Shown here: in pieces, positions 1,283 to 63,607 of the stretch
Numbering within the stretch: the stretch's first letter is position 1
Layout of the letters: each line of letters starts with the position of its first letter
Assembly (NCBI GenBank): GCA_965246715.1
Contig: CBDFFH010000027.1
Coordinates: 64,001 to 128,000, forward strand
From: Chamaesiphon sp.
GTDB taxonomy: Bacteria; Cyanobacteriota; Cyanobacteriia; Cyanobacteriales; Chamaesiphonaceae
Direction: 5' to 3'
DNA length: 64,000 bases
The notes under the pieces: model-generated
What the model was told of the DNA's origin: nothing
Database searches by the model: none
The model's input: only the letters and a program-made list of their open reading frames with translations
Position numbers and translations under genes: made by a program

Positions 1283-1915
1283 TTGATGCCCAAAGCGACA
1301 GACAGCATTAACCTTCGTCTAGCTTGCTTAGAAGATATCCCTGCTTTAGCCGCGCTGATTCCAGTATCTGCTAGATCGCTTCAGGCAAGCTATTACACTC
1401 CGGCGCAAATTGAAGGAGCGTTAGGAACCGTCTTTGGTGTCGATAGTCAACTGATTCAGGATGCTACTTATTTCATTGCCGAAAGCGAAAACCAGATTGT
1501 CGGTTGTGGTGGCTGGAGTAGGCGCAAAACACTTTATGGTGGAGATTCTCGTACCGTTGGCGAAGCGTCTGCCTGCGCAGAGAGGCTCCGCCAACGGGGC
1601 AAGAACATCGAGGAAGATCGGTTGCTCGATCCCAGTATCGATGCTGCCAAGATTCGGGCATTCTTTGTGCATCCAGCATGGGCACGAAGAGGAATCGGTA
1701 GCGAGATTATGCGCCGATGTGAAATGGCAGCATTAGACGCTGGATTTAAAACCATTGAGATTGTTGCTACATTAGCGGGCGAACCGCTATATCAAAGTTT
1801 CGGGTATCATTTAATCGCTCGATTTGAGATCGCGCTTCCTAATAACAACGTTCTTCCAGTCATTCGGATGTTCAAGAATTTTACGCAGGCGAACCACCCG
1901 TCGTATTTACATTAG
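1283..1915 (+). CDS. GNAT N-acetyltransferase carrying a 16-aa in-frame micro-element insertion
   Basis: FFVHPAWARRGIGS acetyl-CoA motif; paralog of 4298-4852, which lacks the insert. Confidence 0.9.
   Translation: MMPKATDSINLRLACLEDIPALAALIPVSARSLQASYYTPAQIEGALGTVFGVDSQLIQDATYFIAESENQIVGCGGWSRRKTLYGGDSRTVGEASACAERLRQRGKNIEEDRLLDPSIDAAKIRAFFVHPAWARRGIGSEIMRRCEMAALDAGFKTIEIVATLAGEPLYQSFGYHLIARFEIALPNNNVLPVIRMFKNFTQANHPSYLH
1547..1594 (-). mobile_element. Nested pair of HIP1-core-targeted micro-elements (48 bp)
   Basis: Removal restores GGA GAT CGG GGC (YGGDRGK), matching paralog YGADRAK; contains TTGGCGGAGCC.. on - and TTGGCGAAGCG.. on +. Confidence 0.8.
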
Positions 1916-2074
1916 ATTCCGCCGCCGTGATGACTCCTGGCAGTTTTTATCAAGAAATTATTCAAGCGGTAAAACAGTTAAATCGTCGAGTTATGCAGCC
2001 AAAGCGAGCGAAATTAGCAGTATCATTCGATCGGAAAATGGTGTCAAAATAGTGTGTGGCGCGATCGATACTCA

Positions 2075-2680
2075 TTAATCATTCATCAGACCAAAGTTCT
2101 TCGCTGATGCTAACGAAATGTCTGGCAGGTTACGCAGCATATCATCCCAAGTATTTTGTCCTTGCAAAGCTTCCACGATAATCTGAAGCGGTTCGCTAAG
2201 AATCGCTGGAAAATCTGCCTCTTCAGAAAACTGAATTTTATACGCTAACTGTTCTTGAGGTGGCGTAAACCGAGCATTAATGCCCGCTTTGTTACCTCTG
2301 GCATCAACCCGATACCAACCAATCTCAGGTAGATATATGGCATTAAAACCATGCAAAGTATAAGGCGCACCCTTGTCATCAATACTCAATCGCTGATAAC
2401 AAAATCCGGTTGGAATTAGATTAGCTCGTAGTAGTGCTGCTAGCAGATGACTCTTGGCGAAGCAATAACCTGTTCGATGCTGAAGAACATCTGACGCTCG
2501 ACAAGTCACGGGATTCATTCGATAGTCAACACTGTGACGGATCTCGTCTTTGACCCATTTAAAGCAGGCTTTGGCGATCGCGATTGGTGCCCGCTCTCCC
2601 GCTGCAATTTGTTTGGCACATGCGATGATTTCAGGATGCTGCCAATCGATAATTTCACTAACTTTCAAGTATTCTTCCAT
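2075..2680 (-). CDS. Transglutaminase-like cysteine protease family protein
   Basis: GYCFAKSHLLAALLRA, HGFNA and WYRVDARGN (Cys-His-Asp triad). Confidence 0.88.
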   Translation of the reverse strand: MEEYLKVSEIIDWQHPEIIACAKQIAAGERAPIAIAKACFKWVKDEIRHSVDYRMNPVTCRASDVLQHRTGYCFAKSHLLAALLRANLIPTGFCYQRLSIDDKGAPYTLHGFNAIYLPEIGWYRVDARGNKAGINARFTPPQEQLAYKIQFSEEADFPAILSEPLQIIVEALQGQNTWDDMLRNLPDISLASAKNFGLMND

Positions 2681-2701
2681 ATCCCAAACGTGCAGACATA
2701 G

Positions 2702-4138
2702 TTAAGTTTCATCTGTTTCTTCTGGATTAGTTAGATCGTGACTAACTACAGGCAATGGTAATCGAATCAAAAAACAAGTCGCACCAGGTTTAGAGTCTAG
2801 GGATACTGTCCCGTGATGGCGATTTTCGACAATCCGCCGGACGATATCCAAACCCAGCCCAGTGCCCTGTCCTACGGGTTTGGTAGTAAAGAAGGATTCA
2901 AAGATCCGCGATTGAATTTCTGGCGGAATGCCCATGCCAGAATCTGCCACCTCGACGCGAATATAGTTACCGTCCTGCGTGGTAGTAATTTTGAGCCGAC
3001 CTTTGCCATCCATTGCATCGATCGCGTTATCGATGAGGTTCGTCCAGACCTGATTGAGTTCGCTCCCATAGGCTTCAATTTGGGGCAAGGCGCGATCGTA
3101 ACACCGCTCGACTTCAATTCCGGTCTTGAGCCGATGTGAGAAGATTTGCAGCGTATCTTCGATGCCCTGATGGACATCGACTAATTGCCGTACCCCACGA
3201 TCGAGATAGGAATATGACTTCATCGATTGTACTAGTGCCGCAATCCGTTCGGCTCCGCGCAACCCGCTGTCAATCATCGACATCACATCAAACGAGAGTG
3301 CCAGCCACCGCACGCCCAGATCTCGAAGTTCTGTCGGATCGTTCCGCCAGCGATCGGTGAGATTTGCCAAGGTTTCTACCGTCACACCCCCGATCGCTAG
3401 TGGTGCAGCTAGGTTCCAGGCATTGTCCACCCCGTAGTCTTCTAGCCACTCTAATAACTGTTCTTCCAGATCGCTGACTAGGAGCGAGTCGAGACGATCG
3501 TGCAAGATCCGATCGTAGCCCTCGTCGTGGACTCGCAGCCACTGCTGGGTGTGTGCGGCTTCGAGCTGGTGCTGCCCGTAGACTAGATTCATCCGCTGTA
3601 GCTCAAATAAGGCGGGAATGACATCTTTCAAGGCGTGGACGACAGCGGCAGCGGGATTGTTCAGTTCATGAGCCAAACCCGCCGCCAGAGTACCTAATGC
3701 TGCCATCTTCTCGCGACCGCGAATGAATGATTCGACCCCGCGCAGTCGCCGCGCCATCACGCGAAACACAGCCCGTTCAAAGTCCCGACATTCGTGGAGC
3801 AGGGTGCGAAAATCATCGCCTGCAATTTCGTAAGTCAGGCAGGGTGTGAGCGCATGTAGGGTAACGGGTACGGGTTCGTCAGTGAGGATCGGTGCTTCAC
3901 CAAAGAATTCAGGTGCGCTGTGTTGACCGATCGGGATGTCGATGCCTTCACTGATACGGGTAATCCCGATTTGACCGGAGATTAAGATAAATACGCCTCG
4001 TGCGATGGTGCCTTCTTGGACGAGGATTTCGCCAGCAGTTAGCTCGACTTTGTGGGCGCGATCGCACGCCCAATGTAGTCGTTCTGGTGGTAGGTGTTGA
4101 AATAATTCCAGCTTGGCGAGGTCTTCGATACAGAGCAT
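2702..4138 (-). CDS. Cyclic-nucleotide-binding sensor histidine kinase
   Basis: N-terminal cNMP domain (FFGEAPIL), LAHELNNP H-box, NLIDNAIDA, DSGMGI, GQGTGLGL; ATG at 4138. Confidence 0.93.
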   Translation of the reverse strand: MLCIEDLAKLELFQHLPPERLHWACDRAHKVELTAGEILVQEGTIARGVFILISGQIGITRISEGIDIPIGQHSAPEFFGEAPILTDEPVPVTLHALTPCLTYEIAGDDFRTLLHECRDFERAVFRVMARRLRGVESFIRGREKMAALGTLAAGLAHELNNPAAAVVHALKDVIPALFELQRMNLVYGQHQLEAAHTQQWLRVHDEGYDRILHDRLDSLLVSDLEEQLLEWLEDYGVDNAWNLAAPLAIGGVTVETLANLTDRWRNDPTELRDLGVRWLALSFDVMSMIDSGLRGAERIAALVQSMKSYSYLDRGVRQLVDVHQGIEDTLQIFSHRLKTGIEVERCYDRALPQIEAYGSELNQVWTNLIDNAIDAMDGKGRLKITTTQDGNYIRVEVADSGMGIPPEIQSRIFESFFTTKPVGQGTGLGLDIVRRIVENRHHGTVSLDSKPGATCFLIRLPLPVVSHDLTNPEETDET

Positions 4139-4297
4139 TAGCAATAATCCTCAGCTTGTGGAGGTTGAGTTAAGGAAGTTTAACGCATCATCAGTTTGCG
4201 TAAAGTTCATCTCGATCGAGGGTAGTGTAGATATCCTGTTGTGACTAAAGCGGCAGAACGTTCCCAATCACCGCAAAAAGTCTTAATTAGCATCCCT

Positions 4298-25733: not shown

Positions 25734-26474
25734 TCAAACTAAAGCATCGCCGCCGTCTACGAGTAAAGTAGCTCCGGTGACAAAGCCATTACCCATCAAA
25801 AAAAGTACGGCATCAGCAATCTCTTCAGGTTTACCGATTCGCTGGACTGGCAACTTATTAGCGATCGCTTCGACAATTTCATCCCGCTGTTCGCCGAATA
25901 CTTTATCGAGCATTTCACTATCGATTACACCCGCACAAACTGTATTTACTCGAATTGGTGCTAACTCTACGGCTAAATTTCGGGCTACAGCTTCAATCCC
26001 AGCATTGGCAGCACCAGCAACGGCAAATCCAGGATAACCGCGCCGACCAGCCAACCCTGAAATAAAGGTAATCGAACCATTCATCCGAATTCGATCGCTG
26101 GTATGTTTCACTACCTGTAAAGCTCCCCAAATCTTGCTGTCTAAAGTCGGACGCAGTTTCTCGATCGTGGTTGCGGGTAAGGTAGCAGTGGTGGCATCTT
26201 GAGCGGAAATAAACAGGTGGTCGAAATCCCCAATCTTGGCAAATGCTTGGGATATGGCAGCTTCATCCATGATATCAATTGCGATCGCTCGAACATGCTC
26301 TCCAATCGCATCTTTGGCTCGATTCCGCAAAGCGGAGGCTACGCCAACGAGTTTAGATAGCGATCGTCCCAAAATGAAAATGCTTGCACCTTCACTATGC
26401 GCTAGTTTTGCCACTGCCAAGCCAATACCCGAACCACCGCCGACGATCGCTACAACCTTATTTGTTAATCGCAT
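25734..26474 (-). CDS. SDR oxidoreductase with an 8-aa in-frame micro-element insertion
   Basis: GGGSGIG, ELAPIRVN; VGVASALRN insert. Confidence 0.9.
   Translation of the reverse strand: MRLTNKVVAIVGGGSGIGLAVAKLAHSEGASIFILGRSLSKLVGVASALRNRAKDAIGEHVRAIAIDIMDEAAISQAFAKIGDFDHLFISAQDATTATLPATTIEKLRPTLDSKIWGALQVVKHTSDRIRMNGSITFISGLAGRRGYPGFAVAGAANAGIEAVARNLAVELAPIRVNTVCAGVIDSEMLDKVFGEQRDEIVEAIANKLPVQRIGKPEEIADAVLFLMGNGFVTGATLLVDGGDALV
26324..26347 (-). mobile_element. HIP1-core-targeted micro-element (24 bp, in frame)
   Basis: CG^TTGGCGTAGCCTCCGCTTTGCGGA^ATCG; removal restores SKLDRAK. Confidence 0.85.
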
Positions 26475-43278: not shown

Positions 43279-43765
43279 GTGAAAATACTAATCGATGCTC
43301 AGTGTTTTTTGTGGTGGTTTGTCGAACCCGATCGCTTGAGTGCGGAAACGATCGCCGCCATCTCTGACGAAACTAACTCCCTCTGGTTTTCAGTCGCCAG
43401 CGCGTGCGAGCTGACAATGAAGGTGTCACTGGGAACGTTATCGCTGCCCGAACCGTTGGTGTAGCCTACCGTAGGTAATCGATTCGTATCTTGCCAGCCG
43501 GATGAAAAAGTTGAGGGCACAATTTTTGGATATTCGAGCAGATCAGGTATTAAAGATAGCAACGTTGCCGCTAGATCGATTCGATCTGATCCTCCTCGCC
43601 CAAGCACGAGTCGAGGGGATGACCCTTGTTACTGCGAACCCAGATCTGGCTAATAACGATGTGGAAATCCTCCTCAACGACTCGGACGAATGCAACACCA
43701 ATAGAATGTCCGGGAGTCAAAGAGCCAGAACCGAATTAGCGTCAGGCAAAAGTCTAAATCGATAG
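43279..43765 (+). pseudogene. vapC: PIN/VapC toxin disrupted by a 22-bp micro-element
   Basis: Two ORF halves matching the intact copy at 59100-59564. Confidence 0.9.
43456..43477 (+). mobile_element. HIP1-core-targeted micro-element (22 bp, frameshifting)
   Basis: CCG^TTGGTGTAGCCTACCGTAGGTA^ATCGATT, versus the empty site CCGATCGATT in the paralog. Confidence 0.92.
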
Positions 43766-44676: not shown

Positions 44677-44970
44677 ATGGAAAGAAAAACGCGAATCGAA
44701 GTCAATAGAGCATTGAGACGGAGAGCGAAGATGATGGGTATCCCTCGCGATGTCGCGATCGTTTTGGCACTAATCGTGGTTTTCTGTCTATTTCTAGGAT
44801 ATTTGAAAGTTCCTGGTAACATCGTTACAGCTATTTTTGTCACTTTATTTTTCACTGCCATACTCTCTCTCAAGGATGTCCTAGCAAGAAACAGGGAACC
44901 AAAAAATTACACCAGAGGATGTCTAAATTATCGTTCGCCTAGCGCTCCCTTGGGGAAATCGCCGCTTTAA
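44677..44970 (+). CDS. Putative VirB3-like membrane protein (copy 1, degenerate)
   Basis: Two TM segments; lacks GMAD of the paralog; 24-bp insert near the C-terminus. Confidence 0.55.
   Translation: MERKTRIEVNRALRRRAKMMGIPRDVAIVLALIVVFCLFLGYLKVPGNIVTAIFVTLFFTAILSLKDVLARNREPKNYTRGCLNYRSPSAPLGKSPL
44934..44957 (+). mobile_element. HIP1-core-targeted micro-element (24 bp)
   Basis: CG^TTCGCCTAGCGCTCCCTTGGGGAA^ATCGC; removal gives YRSP as in the paralog. Confidence 0.75.
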
Positions 44971-46814: not shown

Positions 46815-46849
46815 ATTTTTAATTAGGAAAAATAGATGCAGGAAATTAA

Positions 46850-47784: not shown

Positions 47785-47786
47785 TA

Positions 47787-49343
47787 ACTCGCGAAAATCC
47801 CTCTGAAACACCTTCTGTCAAATCGGCTACAGTATCTCGTACAAATTCATCAGAAGCAGCTATAGATTCTGGATTTAAAGTTACTCAAAAAGATTCAAGT
47901 AACCCCGACCTCAGCCCTAAGCAACAGGCGGAGCAATCGATCGCACAATTAAATAGCCTCTTGGTAAATCAGAAGCACTTTAAGCGCGATCTAGATGTTA
48001 ACGGGACTAAATATAGTTTTGAGAAATATCGAGGTGGTGCGATAAATATTGAATCCTTAGATTCTAAGTTATTTGCAAAGCAAAGGAGAATTACATTTGG
48101 AGGAGATGAATCAAAAATAATTCGAGATTTACCAGAAATCGTTGCGCGGGTAGATCGAGAGTTAGATCTGGAACGACCGAAGCAGATAAATAATCGAACT
48201 GAAGTTTTATACGGCTACGACTCAAGTAATAATTTCATTGAAAAGACCCTCTCCCAAAAAGATGCCCAAGCTATCCTCGATCTGATGGATGGAAAAGAAG
48301 GAACTACTATCGCAGGGGGAGAGAATCTGCTAATCGAATATGATGGTAAAAAGCTATTTGAAACCGACGCTCAAGGGGTGGTAACTTACAGTGCTTACGA
48401 TCGCGATCCCGAACTTCTGAGCAGTGTCAAACTCAAGGATGAGCAGGGATTGACCGACCTCAAGAATTACGCTAAACGCATGGCTGCGTCTCCCGATCGT
48501 GAGGCTAAAGTCACTAAAACTGCCGATGTAGTAGTACCAGATCCACCTCAAGAAGTTAGTAAAGTAGCACCCCAATCCCCGCTCGGAAAAACGCTCGACC
48601 GCCTCGGCGCGCTTCGCGATCGCGCCGAATCTACAACAGATGTAGATCCCCAGCAAGCATCTAGTGTCGTTTACGATCGAGTCCTCAAGTCAGAATTTGC
48701 TAAAGCTAAATCCGTCAACCGCGCTGAAAAGACGATCGAGGCGGTGAAATTCAAACTAAACCCTCAAACTCGCAAAGGAACGCGCTCCATCTCCGTTAAG
48801 CCAAGTAAAGATGCCGATTTTGTCAAAATTGGCGAAGTCGATAAAGAGGGTAAATTTAATCCAGATCCCAAACTTAACGATCCCAATGTTACTAAAGCAC
48901 TCGATCGAGTCTTGGCGGCACGAGGCATCGATCCTCAACTAGTTAAAGAAGCCCAACAAGTTGAAGTAGCCGCTCGATCCAAAGATCCTCAATACCTCCC
49001 ACTCACTCAGGAAAACGCGCCCAAACCCACGCAGAATATTGTCAAATCCCCTGAATTAGCCACTGCTGGTAACGCTTCAGGTGTTAATACACCCAAACCC
49101 AAGCCAAAGACTAAAAATAACACCCCTGAATTATCTACCACGGCTAGTAACGCTCCGAGCGTTACTAGCCCTAATACCACTCTGAATATCGGTAATGATT
49201 CGCCTGAGTTAGCTTCTGCCCCTACCAACTCTCCAGGCGTTAGCGTTCCGACTCGTGGCGAAAAAGAAGCTGTGCAAGTCCCATCAAGCGGCGGCACTCC
49301 CGAAAGATCGCTCCCAGAACCCGAAGTATCCCAGAACCGATAA
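47787..49343 (+). pseudogene. Large hypothetical plasmid-type protein, 5' truncated by IS630
   Basis: The 523-aa frame starts inside the IS end; Pro/Ser/Thr-rich tail with three PEL repeats. Confidence 0.6.
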
Positions 49344-50613
49344 TGTCACAACCAGACCTTACCCAACTAATGACTCAGCACCGGATAATCTTGGTGCGCT
49401 GTAATCCACTCGATCGCGAATGGATCGTCAGTACTCACTTGAGCGATTGCCAGCGGTGGCGATTGAATGTTGCGATTCTCCAAGGGAGAGGCTACGCCAA
49501 CGCCAACGATGCGATCGCTTCGCTCGATTTATCTACGAATATAATTGGAAGCTGCCGACTGCTGCGGAAATTACCGAGTTATTTGGCGAATACCACTTCG
49601 AGCCAAGCGAGCGCAATCTCAGGCTGGCATCGGGGCTAGCTTACCAAGATCTCAAGCTCGCACTGCAACAATCGATCGACCATCCAGAGCCAGAACTATA
49701 TTTAGAAACTTATCGCAACGCACGACTTTCCCTGCTAGGTGTTAAATACGATCCGCCCCCAGCATTCAAAGAAATCGCTGGATTAGATGAATTGGTGCTG
49801 GCAATCGATAAGCTGAAATTTAGATTCAGCCAACGTGCGATCGATATTGGACTACCTTACCCGAAAGGCTGGCTGCTAGTCGGGATACCAGGAACGGGAA
49901 AAACATATTCTGCGCGATCGATCGCCTCAGCACTGGGCTACCCCATGTTATCGCTAGAGATCGACAAAATTAAGGTCGGTGGTTTGACGGCAATGGCAAG
50001 GGTTTTAGAAATCGCTCGCGTTTGTGCCCCATGTATTTTCTACATGGACGAGATCGAGAAGCTATTTACCAGGGACGATAAGCCACTTCTATCCCTACTA
50101 TTAACTTGGCTGCAAGATAAAACATTCCCAGTTTTTGTTATCGGTACTCTCAATCGGATTGAAGATTTACCCGTTGAGGCTACTCGTGCTGGTCGATTTG
50201 ATTGTGTTTGGGAAGTCGATTCTCCCGATGCCGAATCTCGTCTGAATTTATTCATACTATTTCTCAACCGATTTGACTCTAGATTTAAAGACGATCTAGT
50301 TTTTGATAAATACGAGTGGCAAAGCATTCTCGATGAAACGATTGAGTATGTCGGTGCAGAAATCGAGCAAATTGTCATCGATACAATTGCAAGAATTAAA
50401 GAGGGCGATCCTGATGGAGAAGTTACAGCAAGAGATTTACTTGAGGAAGCAATGCAATTTAATTGTCTGTTCGAGCGCAATTCCAAACAAATTGTCACAA
50501 TCAGAAACTCAATCCGCGAATTAGCAAAGCCCTCTCATTCAAAAAAACAGAGTATTCTGGCACCTCGGAATTTCGATCCTTACCGACCTGCAAAAGTAAC
50601 ATCATCAAATTAA
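49343..50613 (+). pseudogene. Ycf46-like AAA+ ATPase, N-terminus out of frame
   Basis: GIPGTGKT, YMDEIEK, RAGRFD; the ATG coupled to the upstream stop (TAATG) is in another frame. Confidence 0.75.
49477..49500 (-). mobile_element. HIP1-targeted micro-element (24 bp)
   Basis: GCG^TTGGCGTAGCCTCTCCCTTGGAGA^ATCGC; removal restores GCGATCGC. Confidence 0.88.
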
Positions 50614-50640
50614 AAACCGATCTAATATATTAATACCAAA

Positions 50641-51288: not shown

Positions 51289-51289
51289 T

Positions 51290-51376
51290 ATGGCAAACAA
51301 TAAAAAAGAAGAGCATTCCGAACAAATAATTAATGAGCATTTCACTTCCACATTACATCTCTGTAATGGATTCTTA
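51290..51376 (+). pseudogene. Gene stub cut by IS5
   Basis: ATG 1 bp after the upstream stop; MANNKKEEHSEQ.. runs into the IS end. Confidence 0.55.
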
Positions 51377-52293
51377 GAACCTGTTTGAAAAGTTTGAGGA
51401 TAGCTTACCCAGCATGAGTTTTAGGCTCTAATCGACGAACCATCAAATGAACCATAGCAGCAAACAGCATCATTTCGCTGGTAGTGGGCAAAAATTCATA
51501 GTCTTTACTTAAACGCCGATAATGTCCAAACCAGGAGTAAGTCCGCTCCACCACCCAACGTTTAGGAATAACCTGAAAACCAGGTTTCTCATCAGTACGC
51601 TTGAGATGTTCCAACTTCCAGCCAAACTGTCGTTCGATCTTTGCCACAAATTCCTTACCAGCAAAGGTGCTGTCGATCCAAATCACTTGCAGGCACTGCC
51701 ATAACCAAGCCCAGAACGTGGCTAGTAAAATCATCCCCGCATGGTCGGAGCGTCCAGCACTATGCACACAGACACCCAGCAGCAGACCCATTGTATCGAC
51801 CAAGATGGTTCGTTTACGTCCTTTAACCTTCTTGCCACCATCAAATCCGATCTCCTCACCCCCACTGGCTGTTTTCACCGATTGACTATCCACGCTCCCT
51901 GCACTCGGTTGGGCATTTCTTCCGGCTGCTAGTCGCACCTTTACTCGTAATTCATGATTGAGTTTCTGCCATGTCCCATCTGCCTCCCATGCGCGGAAAT
52001 AGGTGTAAACACTCGGCCATTTTGGTAGGTCATGGGGCATTGCTCGCCATTTAATCCCGTTAGCCAGCAGATAGAAGATTGCATTGAGCACTTCTCTCAT
52101 CTCTAAGCTCCGAGGACGACCTCCTTGTTTGGCCGCCGGAATATACGGTTCTAAAATTTGCCACTGGTCATCTGTGAGGTCTGTGTCGTATGCTAGTCGT
52201 GTCATTATAAGGGTCTGTTTTTAGACCCTTTTACTTTACAATTGCCTTGTCACAGAGGCTCAGAGGCGTTCTCAATACTTTTCAAACAGCTTC
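51377..52293 (-). mobile_element. IS5-family (IS1031-like) element; transposase 51405-52205 intact
   Basis: YDTDLTDDQW, DSQSVKT, KRWVVERT; 17-bp TIR GAA(C/G)CTGTTTGAAAAGT; flanks TTA and TCA differ. Confidence 0.93.
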
Positions 52294-52779
52294 TCAGGCA
52301 AGAGTGTAGCGATATGCAGTTGTCGGAATTTTTCTTCCGCCTTCGACAGCGATACCAGGATCGGGAATATTTCCCTTTTCTGGTAGCGTGTTTCGCCAAG
52401 TATAAATACCACTCATGGTTTTTTGAGCGAAGAACTTAATCAGCGTTGGCGACCGATCGGTTCCTGTGAAAAATTCGAGATTTTCGGTTTCACCATTACC
52501 ACGAGTAATGAAAGTTGGCATCGATCGCGAGATGGCAGCAAATAACATGCCGATAATAGCTACTCCAAAAAAAACATTAATAACCAGCAACCCGAAGGTG
52601 GCGATTTTCCAACCAGTAATGATATTTTTCGAGCGGATTGTTTCGGAACTATCTACGATATATTCATCTTGCGTATCATCTCTCGAATCGTGGAGAACTA
52701 TTACCGATGAATGTTCATCTTGTTGTGGAACAAAGTTTGATATTTGTCTGACTTTCATTGTTTTACAATAGAGTGACAA
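52294..52779 (-). pseudogene. Bitopic conjugation protein (VirB8-position), ending at the IS boundary
   Basis: One TM then a periplasmic region; the stop codon abuts the IS5 TIR. Confidence 0.5.
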
Positions 52780-52799
52780 TCCGATAGTAGAAACTATAA

Positions 52800-53915
52800 T
52801 TATTTTTTAGGAATCATCTTGGATGGTGCTACAAGTCCGATGAGATCGGTTGTAAGTTGAGCCATTAGTGCGTAGATACCAGCTCCGCCACCTTTGGCAA
52901 TTACTCCAGCAATTATCGGTGCGCCGATAGCATAGCCTAGTTGTAAGCTATAGGCTGGCTGGCTTCCTGATGTATTTGCGTTGATAAAACCCATCATTGC
53001 ACCCAAGATAGTTAATGAGAACTTGAAAATACCTAATCCCCATAATGAAGCAAACCAAATTTCAAGTGGTTTGGTATTTAAAAATGAGAAGGCAAGTGGA
53101 ATCGGCAGAGCCAAAATTGACAGGATGAAACCTTCATCAGCTATTTCACCAATCATCACAGACCAGCCATCTAAGATGGCACCAACCAACCAATCGCGCA
53201 ACCATTTATCTGGGTCATTTGCAAATTTGACAAATTGATTCCAGACGCTGTTATAGTCATACGAATCGACGAGACTATTCATTTTGGCTTCTGTATCGGC
53301 TAATTCTGTGACAAGTTCGGGATTCGCTACCGATAGTTTAGCTGCGACAACCATCGTCTTTACATCTTTAGTACACTGGACGTATGCTGGATTTGGAATG
53401 ACATTCCCTGGCTTGGCGGGATCGGGATCGGCGATCGTCTTCGGTAACTTGATGCAGACTTGCATTTGATTACTAATCGCCTTAACAGTTTCATTGTCGG
53501 TTTTTATCCCCGCAAGTTCGGCATTGACACTTCCTAACAATTTTGTATTGGTGGCGATCGAACTATCGATACCTCTAATCAGAGCATAGTTACCGATCGC
53601 AAATACACGCGCTCCATAAGCATTCCCCACGAACATAAATGTGATCAGCAGGAGCGTTAAAATCCTCAGCAGATGATTTTTAAGGTTGTCGAAAGATAGA
53701 TCTGGGATAATTGGCACTAGCCAAAACAATACCCCAACTCCGGCAATAACCTTGCATGGTTCGACTATTGCCATCCAAAAAGTATCTGTAAAAGATGCTG
53801 CGTTACCAGTAATTAGAATACTAATTATCTTAAATAGTGCCTGTTCGTACTCACTCGCAATTACAGCAGGATCGGTTGAGGCGAGGATTGTAGTGTGAAT
53901 AATATCGGCAAACAA
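52800..53915 (-). CDS. Polytopic membrane protein, VirB6-like
   Basis: Multiple TM segments, central loop with two Cys; position in the tra-like operon. Confidence 0.55.
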   Translation of the reverse strand: MFADIIHTTILASTDPAVIASEYEQALFKIISILITGNAASFTDTFWMAIVEPCKVIAGVGVLFWLVPIIPDLSFDNLKNHLLRILTLLLITFMFVGNAYGARVFAIGNYALIRGIDSSIATNTKLLGSVNAELAGIKTDNETVKAISNQMQVCIKLPKTIADPDPAKPGNVIPNPAYVQCTKDVKTMVVAAKLSVANPELVTELADTEAKMNSLVDSYDYNSVWNQFVKFANDPDKWLRDWLVGAILDGWSVMIGEIADEGFILSILALPIPLAFSFLNTKPLEIWFASLWGLGIFKFSLTILGAMMGFINANTSGSQPAYSLQLGYAIGAPIIAGVIAKGGGAGIYALMAQLTTDLIGLVAPSKMIPKK

Positions 53916-53952
53916 AATAGCTCTGCTCCTGTAATAAACGACTGTCTATCGA

Positions 53953-53991
53953 TTTAAGATATTTGCATTTGCTAAGTGCAAATATCTTAAA
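53953..53991. terminator. Strong intergenic hairpin
   Basis: TTTAAGATATTTGCA..TGCAAATATCTTAAA. Confidence 0.55.
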
Positions 53992-54005
53992 GGACGTTCG
54001 ATTCG

Positions 54006-54027
54006 TTCGCGTAGCGTACCGTAGGTA
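54006..54027 (+). mobile_element. HIP1-core-targeted micro-element (22 bp)
   Basis: TCG^TTCGCGTAGCGTACCGTAGGTA^ATCGA. Confidence 0.85.
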
Positions 54028-54042
54028 ATCGAACACTATGAA

Positions 54043-55038
54043 TTAAATCCAGCAAATATTACTTGAAGCGCACAATCGAGCGCGAGCTTTGATTTTGTTA
54101 GCGTCAAGATAAGTGGTTCTCAGCGAATCCATGTCTGCTTCAACTCGTTTTTGCTCGTCCTCGGCGATACTCCGCTGTTGTACCAGAGCGTTGTGCTTGG
54201 CTTGATTTTCTCCTTGAGATAAATTAGCCAGCCCGATGGTATTGGCAGTGGCACTCATAATCAGATTTTGTGAGAGCATATTGTTCATCGCTCCCATGCG
54301 GTTAAAACTGCTACCCGCTTTGGCACTGAGATCGGCTTGAGCGGCACCAGTCGCCAATGTGGAATTATTAGCATCGCCAGTCGCACTCATAATCGAGGAA
54401 ACTGCTTTGTTGGTGTTTTGGCGATTGGCTTCGGCAACACTGGCTCCAGACTTAGATTTGGCTAAATCTATTTGAGCGATAACAGCTTTGGTATCGAGTC
54501 CTTTTCCGTTGAGGATGTTAGAAGCCTGATAAGCAATCATTTTGCCTGTAGGGTCGTCGGTTTTGACGCTACCATCTGGATTCAAAGGTTGGATATTACC
54601 CGCTGCATCGAGTCCGTAACTGCCGAAGTTAATTCCTACACCAGTACCGCCGTTCATCCCTGCCGTAGCTTGTCCGATTTGTGCCAAGGTAGGTTGCTGA
54701 CCTGCTAATACGCTTTGTGCGATCGGTGCGTATTTCGACGCAGTTGTCAGAGCTGAGGCGATATTTGGATCTAGCCCTGGAAAGGCACTGACGATCCCAC
54801 TAAAGACGTTAGAAAGATTGCCAGGATTGGATAAGATCGACTGAATGCCTTGGGGATTGAATGTGGGATTTGCTGTTGGGTCGGTGGGATTTGCCGTGGG
54901 TGTGTCGCCTGGAGCGACCGAGGATGGAAGTGGATTGGCTGTTCCACCAAGAGTTGCTGCCTCAGCTCCGAGTGGGAGTAAGCTCATCACAAAGCCGGAC
55001 ATGAATGCGATCGTCAGTAATAATGGATATTTTTTCAT
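54043..55038 (-). CDS. Secreted protein, VirB5-position
   Basis: Signal peptide (AEA), helical Ala/Gln/Asn-rich C-terminus. Confidence 0.5.
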   Translation of the reverse strand: MKKYPLLLTIAFMSGFVMSLLPLGAEAATLGGTANPLPSSVAPGDTPTANPTDPTANPTFNPQGIQSILSNPGNLSNVFSGIVSAFPGLDPNIASALTTASKYAPIAQSVLAGQQPTLAQIGQATAGMNGGTGVGINFGSYGLDAAGNIQPLNPDGSVKTDDPTGKMIAYQASNILNGKGLDTKAVIAQIDLAKSKSGASVAEANRQNTNKAVSSIMSATGDANNSTLATGAAQADLSAKAGSSFNRMGAMNNMLSQNLIMSATANTIGLANLSQGENQAKHNALVQQRSIAEDEQKRVEADMDSLRTTYLDANKIKARARLCASSNICWI

Positions 55039-55048
55039 AATTTTTCTC

Positions 55049-57838
55049 TCAATGAGTAATAAGGGTTAGTTCGTCGATCCGACCGTTGGTGGCTGCCGCG
55101 CGAGCTTTGCGCTCTTGCTGCTCGTCGATATTGTTAGCTGTGAGAGCCACCAACGAGGGCGGGAGATAAATTCGCGCGGGAGTGAAACGATCGTCTATTT
55201 TGAGCAACCATTGGCTAGAGCAAGTGGCTTTATCTGGCTCAAAATCTTTTCTGGCATTGTTCGATGCCAATGCTTCGGGGACTCCCAGCAATTCGGGATT
55301 GCAATACTCAGCCAGAGAGTCGCCAATTCTGCCGATGAGGTGATACGAGAGCGCGTCCTTGATTTTTTTCCCACCCGCACTCTCGAACACGCTACTCGGC
55401 TCCTGTGCCGCAATCATCAGGCGCATTCCAGCCTTGAGTCCGTTTGCTGCGACCCGCCCGACGCAGAGTGAGAGCGGATCGAGATCGAAGGTAATCGAGG
55501 CTTCGTCGATAAATAATAGAGAACCTTTTCCACTTGCGGCGGCAATCGCTCGCCGCATTGCCGCTGCGTACATAATCGTGCCGAATACCGCAGCATCATC
55601 GTTGTTGCTGACTCCCCGCATGGCGATGGTCATGAGGGGACTATCGAGTTTGACGGAACTCGGAGAATTTATAGTCTTACCGTAGGAGCCATCGATCCAC
55701 CGTTGGAGTTGCAATTGAATCGTACCAAGAGTCTCGATATCGTCAGCGGTTGCCTCTGGAAGATTTATTCGTTCGATCGTGCAAAACCGCTTGAAGTCTG
55801 AGAGGGTGGGATAATCTTGCCAAGCTCTAGAGCCAATCCCCCCATTAATCGCGCGTTCGTACCGGATTAAAATCCGCTCGTCTTTGAAGAAGTTTTTCAG
55901 AGCGGTGGTTAGCATCGAAATGACCTTGCTGCTACTGGTACCCTTGAGTTCGCCTTTCCAGCCCAAAACCATTGCAGTCAGAATTTGAAGGATAAACTCT
56001 TCATTCTGTCTTTTCATGTCCTCGCGCGTCTCTGGATCGATATCTTCAACAATTAGCGGAGTCTCAAAGAAGTTAATGGAGTCGTTAAAGACATCGATAT
56101 AAGCCCCATCCATGTATTCGGTAAAAGCCTTGAACGAACTCGCCTCTTTTGTCGGCGGCTGATCGAGAATCGTCACTGGAATTGCTTGACTCAGTGCTTT
56201 GTGAATGTTAAATGCGGCATATAAAGTCTTACCAGAGCGAGTTTTACCCCAAATAGCGGTGTGTCCCATGTGTGTGAAAGGGTCGAAATAGACGGGCGAA
56301 CCGCCCTTATTCGCAATAAATTCGATTCCAGATTTATGCGCGTTAACCGTCGTTACCATTGGGAAGTAAGCAGCGACGATTTCGGGGCGTTCGCGATCGC
56401 GTCTGTCGCGGACATCCACCAGCATCGACTTACCGTAAAATGGTAAAGATGATACCCACAGCGAATCAGAAGTATCTACTTCCAGTAGTACAATTGCTGG
56501 CGATCGAAAATGCGAGCAGAAGTCACGAGCGGCAAAGTGCATCTGCTCTAGAGTTTCTCTGTAGACAAACATACAGAGCGAAAATTCGACACTCGTATCG
56601 CCACCGATTAACATCCGCTCGGTTTCGAGGGCTTCTTTCAGCTCCTCGTCTGCCAAAACGTCAACTTGTCCTTTTTCCTCTGTTTCTTTCTTGCGGTAAT
56701 GATTTTGGCGGATGAGTTGTTGGTTGTTGTAACGAACGCCGAACTGTTCGGGACGCGATAGCTCTAGCACGATTCGATAATCGTAAGCCGAGCCGATTGC
56801 CATCAAATTCGAGAGATAATGCAGTTGAACTTCCTGGTACGACTCATTACCCGCTTCTTCAAAGACTTTGGGTTGAAGTTTCAGCAGCAGACTGCCGACG
56901 TATCGACGATCGACTTTTACATGGTCGCGGTTGGAAGAGGGAACGGCAGAAGGATAGCGCATCATTACTGTAGTTGGATGCAGTTGCGATCGCACGTTTT
57001 CGCCAATCGTGCCTTTTTGGAGATTAAATTCGACGATCTGTGGTGCTGGTTCTGGTTTGAGTCCTTCTACCCGATCGTTAAACCGATTTAGTTCCTGCCA
57101 GCAATGCTGCCAAACTTCCTCACCAGACAGGGGAGTGGCTTTGAGTTGAAGTTTATCTCTAAATAAATTCGACCACTCAAAAAAGCCCTGCTCGTAGGCA
57201 TTTAGGAGAATTGCATCGATCGTTTGTTGGCGAACTTCCTCGATCGAACCCGATAGCCTTTGATACCAAAGGGTACTGAATTTGATGACTTTCTCAATTA
57301 ACTTTTGCTCTCGCGCTCCTAAGTTAGGGGTAAAAGTGCCCATCAAAAATACTTGGTGAGGGCGACGTTGACCGCTAATGTCGAGATTCTGTAAAATCAA
57401 CATTTCCTCAGCGATTAAGGGCTGAGATTGGGCTGATGCTGTTTCAAATTGAGCGATCAATTCATTCAGGCGAACATTACGATCGCCGAATGATTGAAAT
57501 TCAACGCGCAACTTCTCACCGATCGGTAATTCGTGTCCCAGAGATGAAATTGAGTTAATAATCGATCTAGCCGCTACTTCGCCAAAATCATCGTGAATGC
57601 CTGGGCATTCCCAAATAAATCGCAATTTGTATTCTGGCTTGTCAATTTCATGACTGGTATTTAGCAATAAAGCACCAACTTGAATACCATTTGGCAAGGT
57701 ATAGTTGATGATACTTTGCAAATGAGTTGAGGTTTCCAGAGGATAGAGCAGTTTCTTTTTGTCGCTTAAACCTTTATGTCTGATTTTTCTTAGTTTTAGC
57801 TTTTGGCTCAGAGGTTTATTGCTTTCCTTGTTTTTCAT
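55049..57838 (-). CDS. VirB4/TraC-like conjugation ATPase
   Basis: 929 aa; GKTRSGKT Walker A, LLFIDEA Walker B, AAQEP. Confidence 0.8.
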   Translation of the reverse strand: MKNKESNKPLSQKLKLRKIRHKGLSDKKKLLYPLETSTHLQSIINYTLPNGIQVGALLLNTSHEIDKPEYKLRFIWECPGIHDDFGEVAARSIINSISSLGHELPIGEKLRVEFQSFGDRNVRLNELIAQFETASAQSQPLIAEEMLILQNLDISGQRRPHQVFLMGTFTPNLGAREQKLIEKVIKFSTLWYQRLSGSIEEVRQQTIDAILLNAYEQGFFEWSNLFRDKLQLKATPLSGEEVWQHCWQELNRFNDRVEGLKPEPAPQIVEFNLQKGTIGENVRSQLHPTTVMMRYPSAVPSSNRDHVKVDRRYVGSLLLKLQPKVFEEAGNESYQEVQLHYLSNLMAIGSAYDYRIVLELSRPEQFGVRYNNQQLIRQNHYRKKETEEKGQVDVLADEELKEALETERMLIGGDTSVEFSLCMFVYRETLEQMHFAARDFCSHFRSPAIVLLEVDTSDSLWVSSLPFYGKSMLVDVRDRRDRERPEIVAAYFPMVTTVNAHKSGIEFIANKGGSPVYFDPFTHMGHTAIWGKTRSGKTLYAAFNIHKALSQAIPVTILDQPPTKEASSFKAFTEYMDGAYIDVFNDSINFFETPLIVEDIDPETREDMKRQNEEFILQILTAMVLGWKGELKGTSSSKVISMLTTALKNFFKDERILIRYERAINGGIGSRAWQDYPTLSDFKRFCTIERINLPEATADDIETLGTIQLQLQRWIDGSYGKTINSPSSVKLDSPLMTIAMRGVSNNDDAAVFGTIMYAAAMRRAIAAASGKGSLLFIDEASITFDLDPLSLCVGRVAANGLKAGMRLMIAAQEPSSVFESAGGKKIKDALSYHLIGRIGDSLAEYCNPELLGVPEALASNNARKDFEPDKATCSSQWLLKIDDRFTPARIYLPPSLVALTANNIDEQQERKARAAATNGRIDELTLITH

Positions 57839-57886
57839 GACGCTAAATAAACTAAAGGATTCAAGCCAATCGATCGAAAATAAGGT

Positions 57887-58216
57887 CTAGGGTCTTTTCT
57901 TGGAGTGAAGGTCGATCGATCGCGGAGTTAAATCTGGAATTGGCGAACGATAATTCAAGCATCCTCTGGTGTAATTCTTTGGCTTTCTATTTCTTGCCAG
58001 TACATCTGCCATGCCATCTTTTAGGGAAAGTATGGCTGTGAAAAATAAAGTCACAAAAATAGCTGTAACGATGTTAGCCGGAACCTTCAAATATCCTAGA
58101 ACTAGACAGAAAACTACAATTAGAGCCAAAACGATCGCGACATCGCGAGGGATACCCATCATCTTCGCTCTGCGTCTTAATGCTCGATTAACCTCGATTC
58201 GTGTCTTTCTTTCCAT
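57887..58216 (-). CDS. Putative VirB3-like membrane protein (copy 2)
   Basis: VNRAL..MMGIP, two TM segments, directly upstream of the VirB4-like gene. Confidence 0.6.
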   Translation of the reverse strand: MERKTRIEVNRALRRRAKMMGIPRDVAIVLALIVVFCLVLGYLKVPANIVTAIFVTLFFTAILSLKDGMADVLARNRKPKNYTRGCLNYRSPIPDLTPRSIDLHSKKRP

Positions 58217-58234
58217 TAATAGATACCGCTTGAA

Positions 58235-58660
58235 TTATGCACCTGTGAACATAAAGGTGACGATCCGATCTGTTGCAATTACGAGAATTACGAGGACGAT
58301 AATATTTAACATTGGCTTGACTACACCAGAAAAATTTTCTCGATCGTATTCTTGGTATCCCAGGTAAGCTTGCCAGATGGCAATACCACCGACTATTAGC
58401 AATACAGACCAAGGGATCAGATTGACAATGGCAGTAAACAGAGTAGTAAATAGCGGCCCTGCGACTGGGAATCCAGCCATAATCGTTGCAATCTTAGTAG
58501 TCGATACTGTTACAAAAGCATCGTAGATTGGAGCGGCATCAGCTCTAGGAGCTAAGTTCCATCCCCAAATAATTGGGGAGAAACAGGAAATCAAGGCATA
58601 CTGAATATATTTCCAAGAAATTCTATTTCTAGGTTTGCTTAGTGAAGTGGCGTGGTTCAT
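58235..58660 (-). CDS. Putative VirB2/TrbC-like pilin (copy 2)
   Basis: Near-identical to 44207-44632. Confidence 0.55.
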   Translation of the reverse strand: MNHATSLSKPRNRISWKYIQYALISCFSPIIWGWNLAPRADAAPIYDAFVTVSTTKIATIMAGFPVAGPLFTTLFTAIVNLIPWSVLLIVGGIAIWQAYLGYQEYDRENFSGVVKPMLNIIVLVILVIATDRIVTFMFTGA

Positions 58661-58949
58661 GATGACACTCTATGTTTTTAAAGAATATAAGTTTCGACTC
58701 GATTCGTTCGAGCAATTACCGATCGAACGATAATAGCTTTTACATGAAAATTTCAGATCGCGCTCGCCATTAATCTAAGATTTAGTTGACGACAATCGAA
58801 CGATAACAGCCATATTTCGAGTAGAATAAACCTGACTTAATTAGCTGGTCAGGTTAAATTCATCCCCTCTTTTATCCGCATGAGATTATAGACGATCGAC
58901 AAAAATAAGCAAGGTCAGCTCGAACAGTAAATAAAACTTTACAATTAAT

Positions 58950-58994
58950 AAAAAAATGGAGTAGTTAGTCAGCCGCATAGCTAACTAACTACTC
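58950..58994 (-). terminator. Rho-independent terminator after the TA operon (copy 2)
   Basis: Same stem plus T-run on the - strand. Confidence 0.7.
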
Positions 58995-59099
58995 TTTCAA
59001 GGTGTGCGAATTTACTGTCGATGTTGAGTTCGATCGTCGGATCTTGCAATCTCCGTCAAGTTTCCTTGAATTAATAGCGACGGTATCCGAACTTGGCGA

Positions 59100-59564
59100 C
59101 TATCGATTTAGACTTTTGCCTGTTGCTAATTCGGCTCTAGCTCTTTGACTCACGGATATTCTATTTGTGTTGCCTTCGTCCGAGTCGTTGAGAAGGACTT
59201 CTACATCACAATTAGCCAGATCTGGGTTAGCCGTAATCAGGGTCATCCCCTCGACTCGTGCTTGAGCCAGCAAAATCAGATCGAATCGATCTAGCGGCAA
59301 TGTTGCCAGCTTCAACACTTGATCCGCTCGAATGTCTAAAAATTGTGCCCGCAACTTTTTCATTCGACTGGCAAGATACGAATCGATCGGTTCGGGCAGC
59401 GATAAAGTTCCCAGTGACACCTTCATCGTCAGCTCGCACGCGCTGGCAACCGAAAACCAGATCGAATTAGTTTCGTCAGAGATGGCGGCGATCGTTGGAG
59501 CACTCAAGCGATCGGGTTCGACAAACCACCACAAAAAACACTGGGCATCAATTAGTATTTTCAC
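59100..59564 (-). CDS. vapC: PIN/VapC toxin
   Basis: ILIDAQCFLW..SVASACE..K..LG.L..FD..LLAQA..LIT. Confidence 0.85.
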   Translation of the reverse strand: MKILIDAQCFLWWFVEPDRLSAPTIAAISDETNSIWFSVASACELTMKVSLGTLSLPEPIDSYLASRMKKLRAQFLDIRADQVLKLATLPLDRFDLILLAQARVEGMTLITANPDLANCDVEVLLNDSDEGNTNRISVSQRARAELATGKSLNR

Positions 59565-59614
59565 TCGCGATCGCTCCTTACTTTTGTTTGGCTGAAAGAT
59601 CGGGAAAATAGGGT

Positions 59615-59836
59615 TTATAGATGAGGGGGCAGCGGGTTGTTAAAACTGGAGGAAATGTAGTACAATCCGCGATCGACACCCATACTGCGACTGCGCGATC
59701 GCTTATTTTCCACCGGAACTAACCTAGCCACCGCGATCCCTCGATTGGCGATGATTATCTCTTCCCCTAGTTCCACGCGGGATAATAATTTGGAGAACTG
59801 GGATTTAGCGTTATAGATAGTAAATGTATTCATCAC
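59615..59836 (-). CDS. Phd/YefM antitoxin
   Basis: Differs from 43006-43227 by one residue. Confidence 0.9.
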   Translation of the reverse strand: MMNTFTIYNAKSQFSKLLSRVELGEEIIIANRGIAVARLVPVENKRSRSRSMGVDRGLYYISSSFNNPLPPHL

Positions 59837-60263
59837 GATCGTAAGAAATTAGATTTCCAACTTATTATAGAACAAAAATACTAGTATTTTCTTAAAAGAC
59901 ATGGACATCGCGAGCGTTAGGAGCTGCAATCGGATACGCACGTTGTTCCATCCCCTATTAGATCCCACATTCCGCTGTTTCGACGGTTAAACTAAGCGAT
60001 TCTCTCAAGGGAACGGCTCATCTTCAAAACTGGACTTTAAACTTTAGGTTCGTCCTGCTCCTCAATGTTTAGGTGCTAGTCATGTATACCACTATGTTTT
60101 TTGTCTAACCCATTAAAGCTAAAGTACTCGATCGACCCCCCAATCAGCCCGTTTAAATTTCGCTGTAAAAAGTTCATCCGAATTGCTGGTGCGCCCTGGG
60201 GATCGGCAGATGGCAGGCGATCTGCATCTCGATGTTGCAGGTCTAGAATATCAGCCGATTCAA

Positions 60264-62448: not shown

Positions 62449-62450
62449 CG

Positions 62451-62477
62451 TTGGCGTAGCCGCGCTCGAAGTAGGTA
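62451..62477 (+). mobile_element. HIP1-core-targeted micro-element (27 bp)
   Basis: ACG^TTGGCGTAGCCGCGCTCGAAGTAGGTA^ATCGC. Confidence 0.8.
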
Positions 62478-62487
62478 ATCGCGATGT

Positions 62488-62538
62488 AAATCTTAACTTC
62501 GACGAGCTGGCTAGCCGCCCAGTCGAAGTTAAGAATTT
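62488..62538 (+). terminator. Intergenic hairpin
   Basis: TCTTAACTTCGAC..GTCGAAGTTAAGA. Confidence 0.55.
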
Positions 62539-62562
62539 GCAGCCCAAGTAGAAAAGCAACCT

Positions 62563-63411
62563 ATGAAAGCAAATCTCTCACGCATTAGAATTTGGCGACC
62601 GCAGCACCTCCCATCGATCGAGTTGATACATGGTGTTTCTAAAAGTCATTCAGTGCCCCGCAATTTTCATGAAGAACTAGAGCTTGGCATCCGGCAAGGT
62701 GATGGCTGGCAGTTTAAATACCGAGGTGCAACGCACCATGTGCCGTCAGATACTGTGGTAGTGACCCAACCTGGAGAAGCGCATCAGGCTGATTGTACGA
62801 GCGACCGAGACTGCACTTATCGCGGGCTACATATCGGTCTAGATTTACTTCAACAAGTGGCAAACGAAGTTACTGGACGCGACACAGAATTACCATTTTT
62901 TCCGATATCGCTAGTCCACGATCGCAACTTTAATACCCAATTCATTCAAGTTCATCAAGCCTTAGAACGATCCAATTCTCAGCTCGAACAACAGACATTA
63001 GTCTTAGATTTGCTGGCACAATTAATTCTGCGGTATGCGGATAGTACGCATTGCCCGATCGAATTAGGAGCAGAAATTCAGCCTGTCAATCGTGTTCGGA
63101 CATACATAGAAGCACATTCTGAGCAAGAGATATCGTTAGAGAAATTAGCTATAGTTGCAAGTTTAAGTTCCTTCCATCTCAATCGATCGTTTAGCAAAAC
63201 ATTTGGAATACCGCCGCACGCTTATCAGATTCAAGTACGAATAATGAGGGCAAAACGCTTACTCCGAAAAGAACACTCGATCGAGCAAGTCGCTATTGAA
63301 ACTGGATTTGTGAGTCAAAGCCACTTTGGATCGCACTTCAAGCGGCTGGTTAGCATTACTCCCAGGCAATACATTCAAGACAGCAAGAACGTGATAGATT
63401 TCGCTAATTAA
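62563..63411 (+). CDS. AraC family transcriptional regulator
   Basis: LSSFHLNRSF..GIPPHAY..VAIETGFVSQSHF. Confidence 0.95.
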   Translation: MKANLSRIRIWRPQHLPSIELIHGVSKSHSVPRNFHEELELGIRQGDGWQFKYRGATHHVPSDTVVVTQPGEAHQADCTSDRDCTYRGLHIGLDLLQQVANEVTGRDTELPFFPISLVHDRNFNTQFIQVHQALERSNSQLEQQTLVLDLLAQLILRYADSTHCPIELGAEIQPVNRVRTYIEAHSEQEISLEKLAIVASLSSFHLNRSFSKTFGIPPHAYQIQVRIMRAKRLLRKEHSIEQVAIETGFVSQSHFGSHFKRLVSITPRQYIQDSKNVIDFAN

Positions 63412-63583
63412 GTTGATTGCGCTAGAGACAGATGGATTCTCAATCGAGTTGGCATTGCTTTAGCAACGCAGGCTCGAAAAAATTGACATCTTTAAAACAA
63501 TAGATTCGGTTCGCACCAAACTCAAGTCGAACCCGCTCGTGTTGGCGAATGCCTGTCGTTAGGTACAGTGTGAGCGTTGCTTG

Positions 63584-63607
63584 TTGACGGAGCCGCGCCG
63601 CGAGGTA
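63584..63607 (+). mobile_element. Degenerate micro-element (24 bp)
   Basis: TG^TTGACGGAGCCGCGCCGCGAGGTA^ATCG; a related fragment starts at 63542. Confidence 0.6.

Follow-up and report, generated by a model that had tools for sequence, protein, structure and literature searches.

The window analysed here, a stretch of 64,000 nucleotides (nt) of Chamaesiphon sp. DNA (G000:C27:64001-128000 of the 6.12-Mb draft genome G000), is dotted with tiny gene-less elements made of a 2-nt leader, a 3-bp hairpin with a GNA loop (hairpin 1) and a second hairpin (hairpin 2), 21-25 nt in all. An earlier note, made from the letters of the window, had described eight sites occupied by such elements between CG and ATCG. 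All eight carry the sequence it described, and a ninth element has been found (Table 1). The inner element of the nested pair at 1547-1594 resides at CCG^AGAG (^ marks the insertion point) and not at CGATCG, having landed in the reverse strand of hairpin 2 of its host. Hairpin 1 is discordant in this pair (GGC/GCG). Host and inner element together make up a 48-nt in-frame insertion, adding 16 residues to a GNAT acetyltransferase encoded by the open reading frame (ORF) 1283-1915, and paralogues of this ORF lack the 16 residues. The true start of the AAA ATPase ORF may lie downstream of the element at 49477..49500.

Table 1. Micro-elements in the window, and TnpA-Y1-like genes of the same genome (contig:position)
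Feature	Position	Strand	Description
Host element	1547-1556 + 1581-1594	-	24 nt, split by a second element
Inner element	1557..1580	+	24 nt, ends in G
Element	26324..26347	-	24 nt at TCG^ATCG; in frame (+8 aa) in short-chain dehydrogenase ORF 25734-26489
Element	43456..43477	+	22 nt at CCG^ATCG; G.T pair in hairpin 1
Element	44934..44957	+	24 nt, partly decayed, at TCG^ATCG; loop CTA
Ninth element	48600..48620	-	21 nt, AT-leader subtype, followed by GTCG; in frame (+7 aa) in ORF 47772-49343
Element	49477..49500	-	24 nt at GCG^ATCGC (full HIP1); near the 5' end of an AAA ATPase ORF
Element	54006..54027	+	22 nt, CGC hairpin 1, at TCG^ATCG; intergenic
Element	62451..62477	+	27 nt, imperfect hairpin 2, at ACG^ATCG
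Element	63584..63607	+	24 nt, decayed copy of the imperfect-hairpin-2 subtype
TnpA-Y1-like gene	C34:104130
TnpA-Y1-like gene	C36:41018
TnpA-Y1-like gene	C21:186012
TnpA-Y1-like gene	C38:179549
TnpA-Y1-like gene	C9:115806
TnpA-Y1-like gene	C14:4547
TnpA-Y1-like gene	C9:152002

The comparison of filled and empty sites reveals that the elements are mobile, and are inserted precisely without target duplication. Homologous sequences are restored without scar by removing the element at the window sites 1547, 43456, 44934, 48600 and, in part, 54006. Two ungapped empty paralogues are available for the first (CCG^ATCT and CCG^ATCG), nine ungapped empty homologues for the second (six CCG^ATCG, one CCA^GTCG, two distant CCG^CTCG) and four with CG^ATCG for the third, all four with unrelated gaps nearby. 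At 48600-48620 exactly 21 nt are absent from two paralogues, and the locus is filled in one relative; support for an empty homologue at 54006 is partial. No homologue was aligned for 26324, 49477 or 62451 in this comparison; one sequencing-run contig has 27 gap letters over the element at 62451, with a flank too short to count. At 63584 a paralogue is filled at the same site with a better-kept copy.

The comparison with relatives proposed in the earlier note gave a similar picture. Among 105 elements of three relatives (G002, G020 and G021), 20 could be aligned to G000; 17 are cleanly empty there, two are gapped, and one is seemingly filled, though the match is doubtful. CGATCG is found at 10 of the 17 empty G000 sites, against 249 of 392 (64%) control CGATCG sites. 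Since empty sites keep the hexamer at the control rate, the target pre-exists the insertion, and the idea that CG or ATCG is supplied by the element finds no support. Within G000, an ungapped empty paralogue exists for 74 of 263 elements: 23 in one family of miniature inverted-repeat transposable elements (MITEs), 43 of the ATCG type (22 with CGATCG intact) and 8 others. At one MITE site, 36 copies are empty and 26 filled. The insertions are recent, because none of the seven alignable true G002 elements is common to G000. Contigs from three sequencing runs contained no counted joint skipping an element, and there was no clear signal of flank co-transfer beyond the hexamer. The suggestions of the earlier note that these are non-autonomous mobile elements, and that no target duplication accompanies them, are thus upheld by empty homologues in the window, in the relatives and among paralogues. 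The MITE-like family resides outside the window (as an example, at C12:143729 and C16:21835 of G000), and has inverted termini, with 111 matches to one end motif; its interior resembles repeats around the Y1 gene at C9:115803, and an internal segment and its hairpin loops are found in both orientations.

The elements are abundant throughout the genome. By a strict definition (TT leader, GGC/CGC-GNA hairpin 1 and perfect hairpin 2), 233 copies were counted in G000, against one in one order-5 Markov simulated genome. Most are 24 nt (138) or 22 nt (60) long, the others 25 nt (27) or 23 nt (8), and a rare 21-nt subtype is also present. The loop of hairpin 1 reads GTA in 109 copies, GAA in 79, GGA in 28 and GCA in 17. 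The 3' end varies between copies; most end in A, one subtype in G. Patterns and direct pair counts of this sort miss diverged variants, and a count of zero is zero for that pattern only. The window is not the dense spot that the earlier note had taken it for: the contig hosts 9.5 copies per 100 kb, other contigs up to 14. A longer composite repeat, in which hairpin 1 is followed by other sequence, occurs at C9:11186, C9:107525, C37:76010 and C37:91141 of G000 (positions as printed, minus-strand ones being counted on the reverse strand), and may belong to another family of small dispersed repeats (SDRs).

Elements within predicted ORFs are fewer than the target sites would allow, 79 of 263 against 77% of CGATCG sites by a simple ORF heuristic, and 70 of the 79 are 24 nt long, and therefore in frame. 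Both figures fit selection purging frame-breaking copies from genes. About 70 predicted proteins gain in this way 7-8 residues. Orientation ignores transcription, being 35:35 within ORFs and 60:59 between co-oriented genes, and the orientation concordance of neighbouring elements is 0.47-0.54. In the repeated region G000:C2:236500-245100, made of paralogous units variously filled or empty, all 13 elements lie on the plus strand.

The pairing of both hairpins is conserved by covariation, as the earlier note had proposed. In 86 distinct 24-nt copies selected on hairpin 1 and flanks only, pairs 2-5 of hairpin 2 are Watson-Crick in 66-75 copies, against shuffled maxima of 47-60. In turn, among 221 copies selected on hairpin 2, hairpin 1 is GGC/GCC in 125, CGC/GCG in 49 and CAC/GTG in 3, and its GNA loop, present in 183, lies on one fixed strand. 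G.T pairs are scarce (0-6 of 86 per pair). An alignment of 33 copies chosen by hand (31 of them distinct), and biased because mostly composed of intact ones, contains 47 double-sided changes against 9.3 in shuffled sets. A perfect stem is found in 15 of 16 sequences seen at two or more independent loci and in 34 of 70 singletons (p 7e-4); as decay alone yields singletons, this contrast shows only that spreading forms are intact. One subtype with an imperfect hairpin 2 has spread too (3 loci, plus G010). GCGNAGC is described as an exceptionally stable, nuclease-resistant DNA mini-hairpin, with less stable RNA counterparts (PMC13037366).

The sites in which the elements reside are markedly uniform. 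The 233 strict copies are preceded by CG in 219 cases and followed by ATCG in 156; in 23 more, inside one MITE family, CACT follows. After removal of identical flanks the figures are 203/220 and 161/220 (73%), while CGATCG makes up 19% of CGA sites; the genome-wide enrichment at CG^ATCG on which the earlier note had staked its reading is therefore present. CGATCG is itself frequent in G000 (28,367 occurrences), as are the oligomers TCGATCGA (4633) and GCGATCGC (2803); their densities, about 757 and 458 per Mb, are close to the 750 and 448 per Mb given in one source for Chamaesiphon minutus (PMC4390886). Yet the full octamer GCG^ATCGC surrounds only 12 of 189 ATCG-type sites, against 18.7 expected from the CGATCG context. 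At position -3, A is avoided (7 versus 28 expected) and T favoured. The remaining sites are G^NA loops of the element's own hairpins, CG^A in palindromes of the REP (repetitive extragenic palindrome) type and CCG^AACT in the MITE; about a quarter of all sites in G000 are other CG^A, or G^NA in hairpins.

The strict pattern was found in all 24 other genomes of the genus (31-241 matches each), and in 8 of 16 genomes of other families (1-10 matches), with none in reversed-pattern controls. With a looser pattern, matches were obtained in 104 of 301 genomes sampled across the phylum; many have only one or a few, near the control level, and 13 have 30-206 copies. In a scan of named genomes, in which 80 of at least 117 matching stretches were listed, the records carrying the element among the matches listed include Chamaesiphon, Okeania, Moorena, Phormidesmis and Phormidium; hairpin 2 is present in 32 of 54 listed cyanobacterial matches and in 1 of 24 non-cyanobacterial ones. 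Nine pattern matches in viral contigs, none with a proper hairpin 2, are taken as chance. Okeania and Dapis host a subtype (L201, L202, L205, L219, L226, L238 and L241) in which hairpin 2 is one base shorter at the end, and an extra T or C follows. In G316 (L296-L297), a genome with few HIP1 octamers (518), a 21-nt form carries CGATCG at both ends, and looks as though 6 bp had been duplicated on integration. Plentiful HIP1 does not guarantee the presence of the element, and HIP1-rich genomes without a match include G094 (7537 HIP1) and G157 (5408 HIP1).

A genus devoid of HIP1 separates the element from its usual site. This genus, g166, lies within a family (f7, 261 genomes) which we take to be Nostocaceae. 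It is rich in GGCGCC, like Calothrix PCC 7103, and has 23 CGATCG in 800 kb. A C5 methylase conserved in 12 of 13 HIP1 genomes has no orthologue in any of seven g166 genomes; judging from this distribution, it is probably DmtC, the CGATCG methylase. The GGC/CGC form of the element is at control level in g166, and a CAC-GNA-GTG form with similar second hairpins occurs in 6 of the 7 genomes (7-25 copies, counted on the forward strand alone, since the reverse strand has matches that are counted twice). One genome, G477, had 23 copies inspected: 18 follow CG and 5 TG, and none precedes ATCG. None splits GGCGCC either, and retargeting to this hexamer was not seen. Seven of the 23 reside in one REP-like palindrome, the empty form of which is common, and some g166 copies may have spread along with this host repeat. 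The copies could conceivably date from before the loss of the methylase, yet their hairpins are intact and their hosts varied. In a Nostoc-type genome with 6091 HIP1 and 145 elements (G256), a probable CGATCG methylase gene is found in two pieces (G256:C9:54313-55548).

As the CAC/GTG variant lives in a GGCGCC-rich genus that lacks CGATCG along with its probable methylase, the target seems to be CG^A, CGATCG being a preference and not a requirement. The claim of the earlier note that only the 6-bp core is needed holds in so far as the full octamer is dispensable; the hexamer itself is dispensable as well, as both the quarter of other sites in G000 and the variant living almost without CGATCG indicate.

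The closest known relative is small dispersed repeat 5 (SDR5), reportedly described in Nostoc punctiforme and relatives by Elhai et al. in 2008 (Genome Res 18:1484), and said to reside exclusively within the full HIP1 octamer and to have a conserved secondary structure with compensatory changes. Four Nostoc genomes contain 68-130 HIP1 inserts each, mostly 21 nt long, with a TA leader, the same hairpin 1, a 3-bp hairpin 2 and C at the end. A minority is identical to the type found in the window, and both forms thus coexist; five copies of the 21-nt form reside on the N. punctiforme plasmid pNPUN01. The 21-nt inserts are taken to be SDR5, because length, site and species agree. SDR5 is given as 21 nt long, its function and mechanism being called unexplained since 2008 (PMC13756078); its insertion point is placed between nt 3 and 4 of HIP1 (PMC4390886), and one passage states that no SDR5-like elements were found outside Nostocaceae (PMC5861425). 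The Chamaesiphon element shares the insertion point (GCG^ATCGC/CG^ATCG), and has the GGC-GNA-GCC hairpin 1, the 2-nt leader and the second hairpin of the 21-nt Nostoc inserts, along with a conserved paired structure with compensatory changes such as that reported for SDR5. It differs in being mostly 22-25 nt long, in its TT rather than TA leader, and in a longer and far more varied hairpin 2. In further contrast to SDR5, it rarely sits in the full octamer, abounds outside Nostocaceae, exploits hairpin loops, REPs and MITEs as additional targets, and persists as a variant without HIP1. Compared through the 21-nt Nostoc inserts rather than an SDR5 consensus, the Chamaesiphon element is most likely a homologous sister variant of SDR5, and the kinship suspected in the earlier note is supported by the common insertion point and the identical hairpin 1.

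Similarities to other systems are looser. Like REPs and REPINs with their RAYT (TnpA-REP) transposases, the elements are very short, hairpin-forming, non-autonomous and dispersed, and processing as single-stranded DNA is presumed for both. However, they lack a GTAG (or CGTC) tag at the hairpin foot, have GNA loops and are not doublets; they often reside in frame in genes (70 copies), have no linked or co-occurring RAYT, and are passengers in the REP spacers of G000 itself. Insertion sequences (ISs) of the IS200/IS605 family (IS608, ISDra2) also insert 3' of a short target, carry two hairpins and keep structure over sequence, and their transposition leaves no target duplication. Unlike them, the micro-element has no transposase, no spacing for guide sequences, a variable 3' end and no TnpA that tracks it, and no parent IS was found among the listed contexts of G000 elements. 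Cyanobacterial MITEs (Nezha and others) are likewise non-autonomous and exist as filled and empty sites, but have terminal inverted repeats and target duplications, and are five to ten times longer.

How such elements move is best accounted for, in our opinion, by assuming that a borrowed enzyme which cuts and rejoins DNA, probably one of the HUH type, inserts them precisely after CG, mostly at CG^ATCG, as folded single strands. We assign this reading a probability of about 0.4, because no enzyme could be tied to the element. A single-stranded DNA intermediate is likely, given that the GNA loop keeps to one strand, that G.T pairs are scarce and that the elements are indifferent to transcription direction. 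While boundaries, empty homologues, covariation, target preference and spread are observed, the following steps at the strand level are inferred. In unwound DNA the top strand would fold into two nuclease-resistant mini-hairpins and leave the donor site, possibly as a dumbbell-shaped minicircle; at CG^A it would then become part of one of the two target strands, and replication would fix it. CGATCG would be the favoured site in HIP1 genomes, and hairpin loops and palindromic repeats would serve elsewhere. HUH transposition leaves no duplication. HUH transposases are reported to act on single-stranded DNA hairpins via circular intermediates, Y1 joining being precise after a short motif (PMC6006769).

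The search for the enzyme is where this reading suffers most. G000 encodes seven TnpA-Y1-like genes of the RAYT and subclass-1.2 type (Table 1), the copy at C21:186012 with an internal TGA. Those inspected are flanked by REP-like repeats of their own, which for the RAYT-like genes are of the GTAG type; near two RAYT genes an element lies at most 400 bp away, but within the REP spacers of the RAYTs. No gene family is enriched near elements by neighbour clustering in four genomes, and small GIY-YIG genes are not flanked by elements. The earlier note had proposed profiling nucleases for co-occurrence; the profiles of three Y1 nuclease types revealed no gene tracking the element. RAYT-type hits were obtained in 12 of 22 element-rich and in 10 or 14 of 25 pattern-free genomes. 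Subclass-1.2-like Y1 genes (E<1e-20) reside in 14 of 32 positive and 1 of 34 negative genomes, a contrast confounded by kinship and genome size; they are present in 14 of 22 low-copy genomes, and 6 of 15 additional Chamaesiphon genomes gave no hit. This candidate was set aside, as the association fell once low-copy genomes were added. In G256, for all its 145 copies, no PF01797 hit exceeded the cut-off. Other observations weigh against the proposed route as well. The element is too short to accommodate guide and linker sequences like those at IS608-type ends. In some cases the first 1-2 nt after the element do not agree with the empty site (TA, CA, GT), which plain single-strand insertion does not explain. 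No clear replication-strand bias emerged in this draft genome with weak skew, GC-skew concordance having p values of 0.02-0.9 over six window sizes, and ViennaRNA energies do not separate the two strands. Finally, hairpin 2 stems may also be perfected by template switching.

Alternatively, the element could rely on the HIP1 machinery of the host: a nick or site-specific exchange at methylated CGATCG would open the site, and a small circle with a HIP-like junction would integrate there. The excess of CG^ATCG over its expectation among CG^A sites (73% versus 19%), the existence of AT-leader forms, and the G316 element with CGATCG at both ends, as after Campbell-type integration, speak in this direction. 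Elhai (2015) suggests that SDR5 insertion could in part result from directed cutting at HIP1, and refers to site-specific recombination at this octamer (PMC4390886). We regard this route as unlikely, though the best placed of the alternatives: the variant occurs in six of seven genomes of g166, a genus in which CGATCG is rare and the probable DmtC orthologue was not found, and many HIP1-rich genomes, such as G094 and G157, show no match. Somewhat less probable still is that a tyrosine or serine recombinase exchanges the folded element with the target over a short overlap, in the way integron integrases handle folded attC sites. In its favour are the left junction, G^TT, which is the integron crossover motif, a subtype with a terminal G, and the occasional change of 1-2 nt on the right side (TA, CA, GT), as a brief heteroduplex overlap could leave. 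Against it, the last base is A in most copies and C in the Nostoc form, whose leader is TA, so that the circle junction would not be G^TT; hardly any copies look like the reciprocal product, which would combine an AT leader with TT at the right end (right flank TTCG in 2/220); attC sites are far longer than 21-25 nt; and neighbour clustering, made with no profiling of recombinases, found no recombinase gene enriched nearby.

An RNA intermediate, moved by retro-insertion or RNA-templated repair, seems about as doubtful as a recombinase. The sequence folds as RNA too, and G000 yields 22 reverse-transcriptase matches; yet the nearest element lies at least 5 kb from each of 10 reverse-transcriptase loci checked, no bias with transcription direction exists, the GNA triloop and the few G.T pairs suit DNA better, and Rfam has no match within the window. 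It has finally to be considered that the elements do not move at all, and originate locally by fold-back synthesis at HIP sites, with stems perfected by template switching. The AT-CGC form does resemble a HIP1 fold-back, the filled copies of one MITE site carry several different hairpin 2 sequences, and other hairpins of that MITE have inverted loops. Yet identical 22-24-nt sequences reside at many unrelated loci, in 24 of 24 genomes of the genus and in other families; element and flanks have no sequence in common, and the strand polarity of hairpin 1 is kept. Identical inserts at unrelated empty sites have already largely refuted a local origin, to which we concede very little.

The part of the window from 43000 to 60000 has a gene cluster including a VirB3-like gene and an AAA ATPase, found in several paralogous copies, 85-89% identical, on C27. 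The cluster has an internal inverted duplication (43000-45060 versus about 57940-59960) and hosts two IS copies, IS630-like at 46916 and IS5-like at 51405. A plasmid search with the VirB3-containing cluster of the window returned no match.

A broader view, which we hold a little more tentatively than insertion as a folded strand, would make SDR5 a single branch of a class of 21-25-nt mobile DNA that spans the cyanobacteria and has only its shape as a defining trait, a pair of DNA mini-hairpins inserted at CG^A by an undescribed single-strand cut-and-rejoin activity. HIP1 would be a landing pad where abundant, and the element would outlive the loss of HIP1 and of its methylase. Abundance outside Nostocaceae and persistence without HIP1 were not found in the literature searched, though subscription papers and supplements may hold more. 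With sequence rules this narrow, oligonucleotide assays become feasible and the question of the SDR5 mechanism testable, and the HIP1-free genus g166 separates the element from HIP1 methylation. If the broader view is correct, the enzyme would integrate oligonucleotides precisely and leave no scar, and an enzyme inserting a 22-mer in this way would be of interest as a tool. SDR5 has been until now a curiosity of Nostocaceae; the present element is abundant in another family, with lineage variants that differ in hairpins and targets. Should it indeed outlive HIP1 and the HIP1 methylase, some of the smallest mobile DNA known would have a transposition route of its own.

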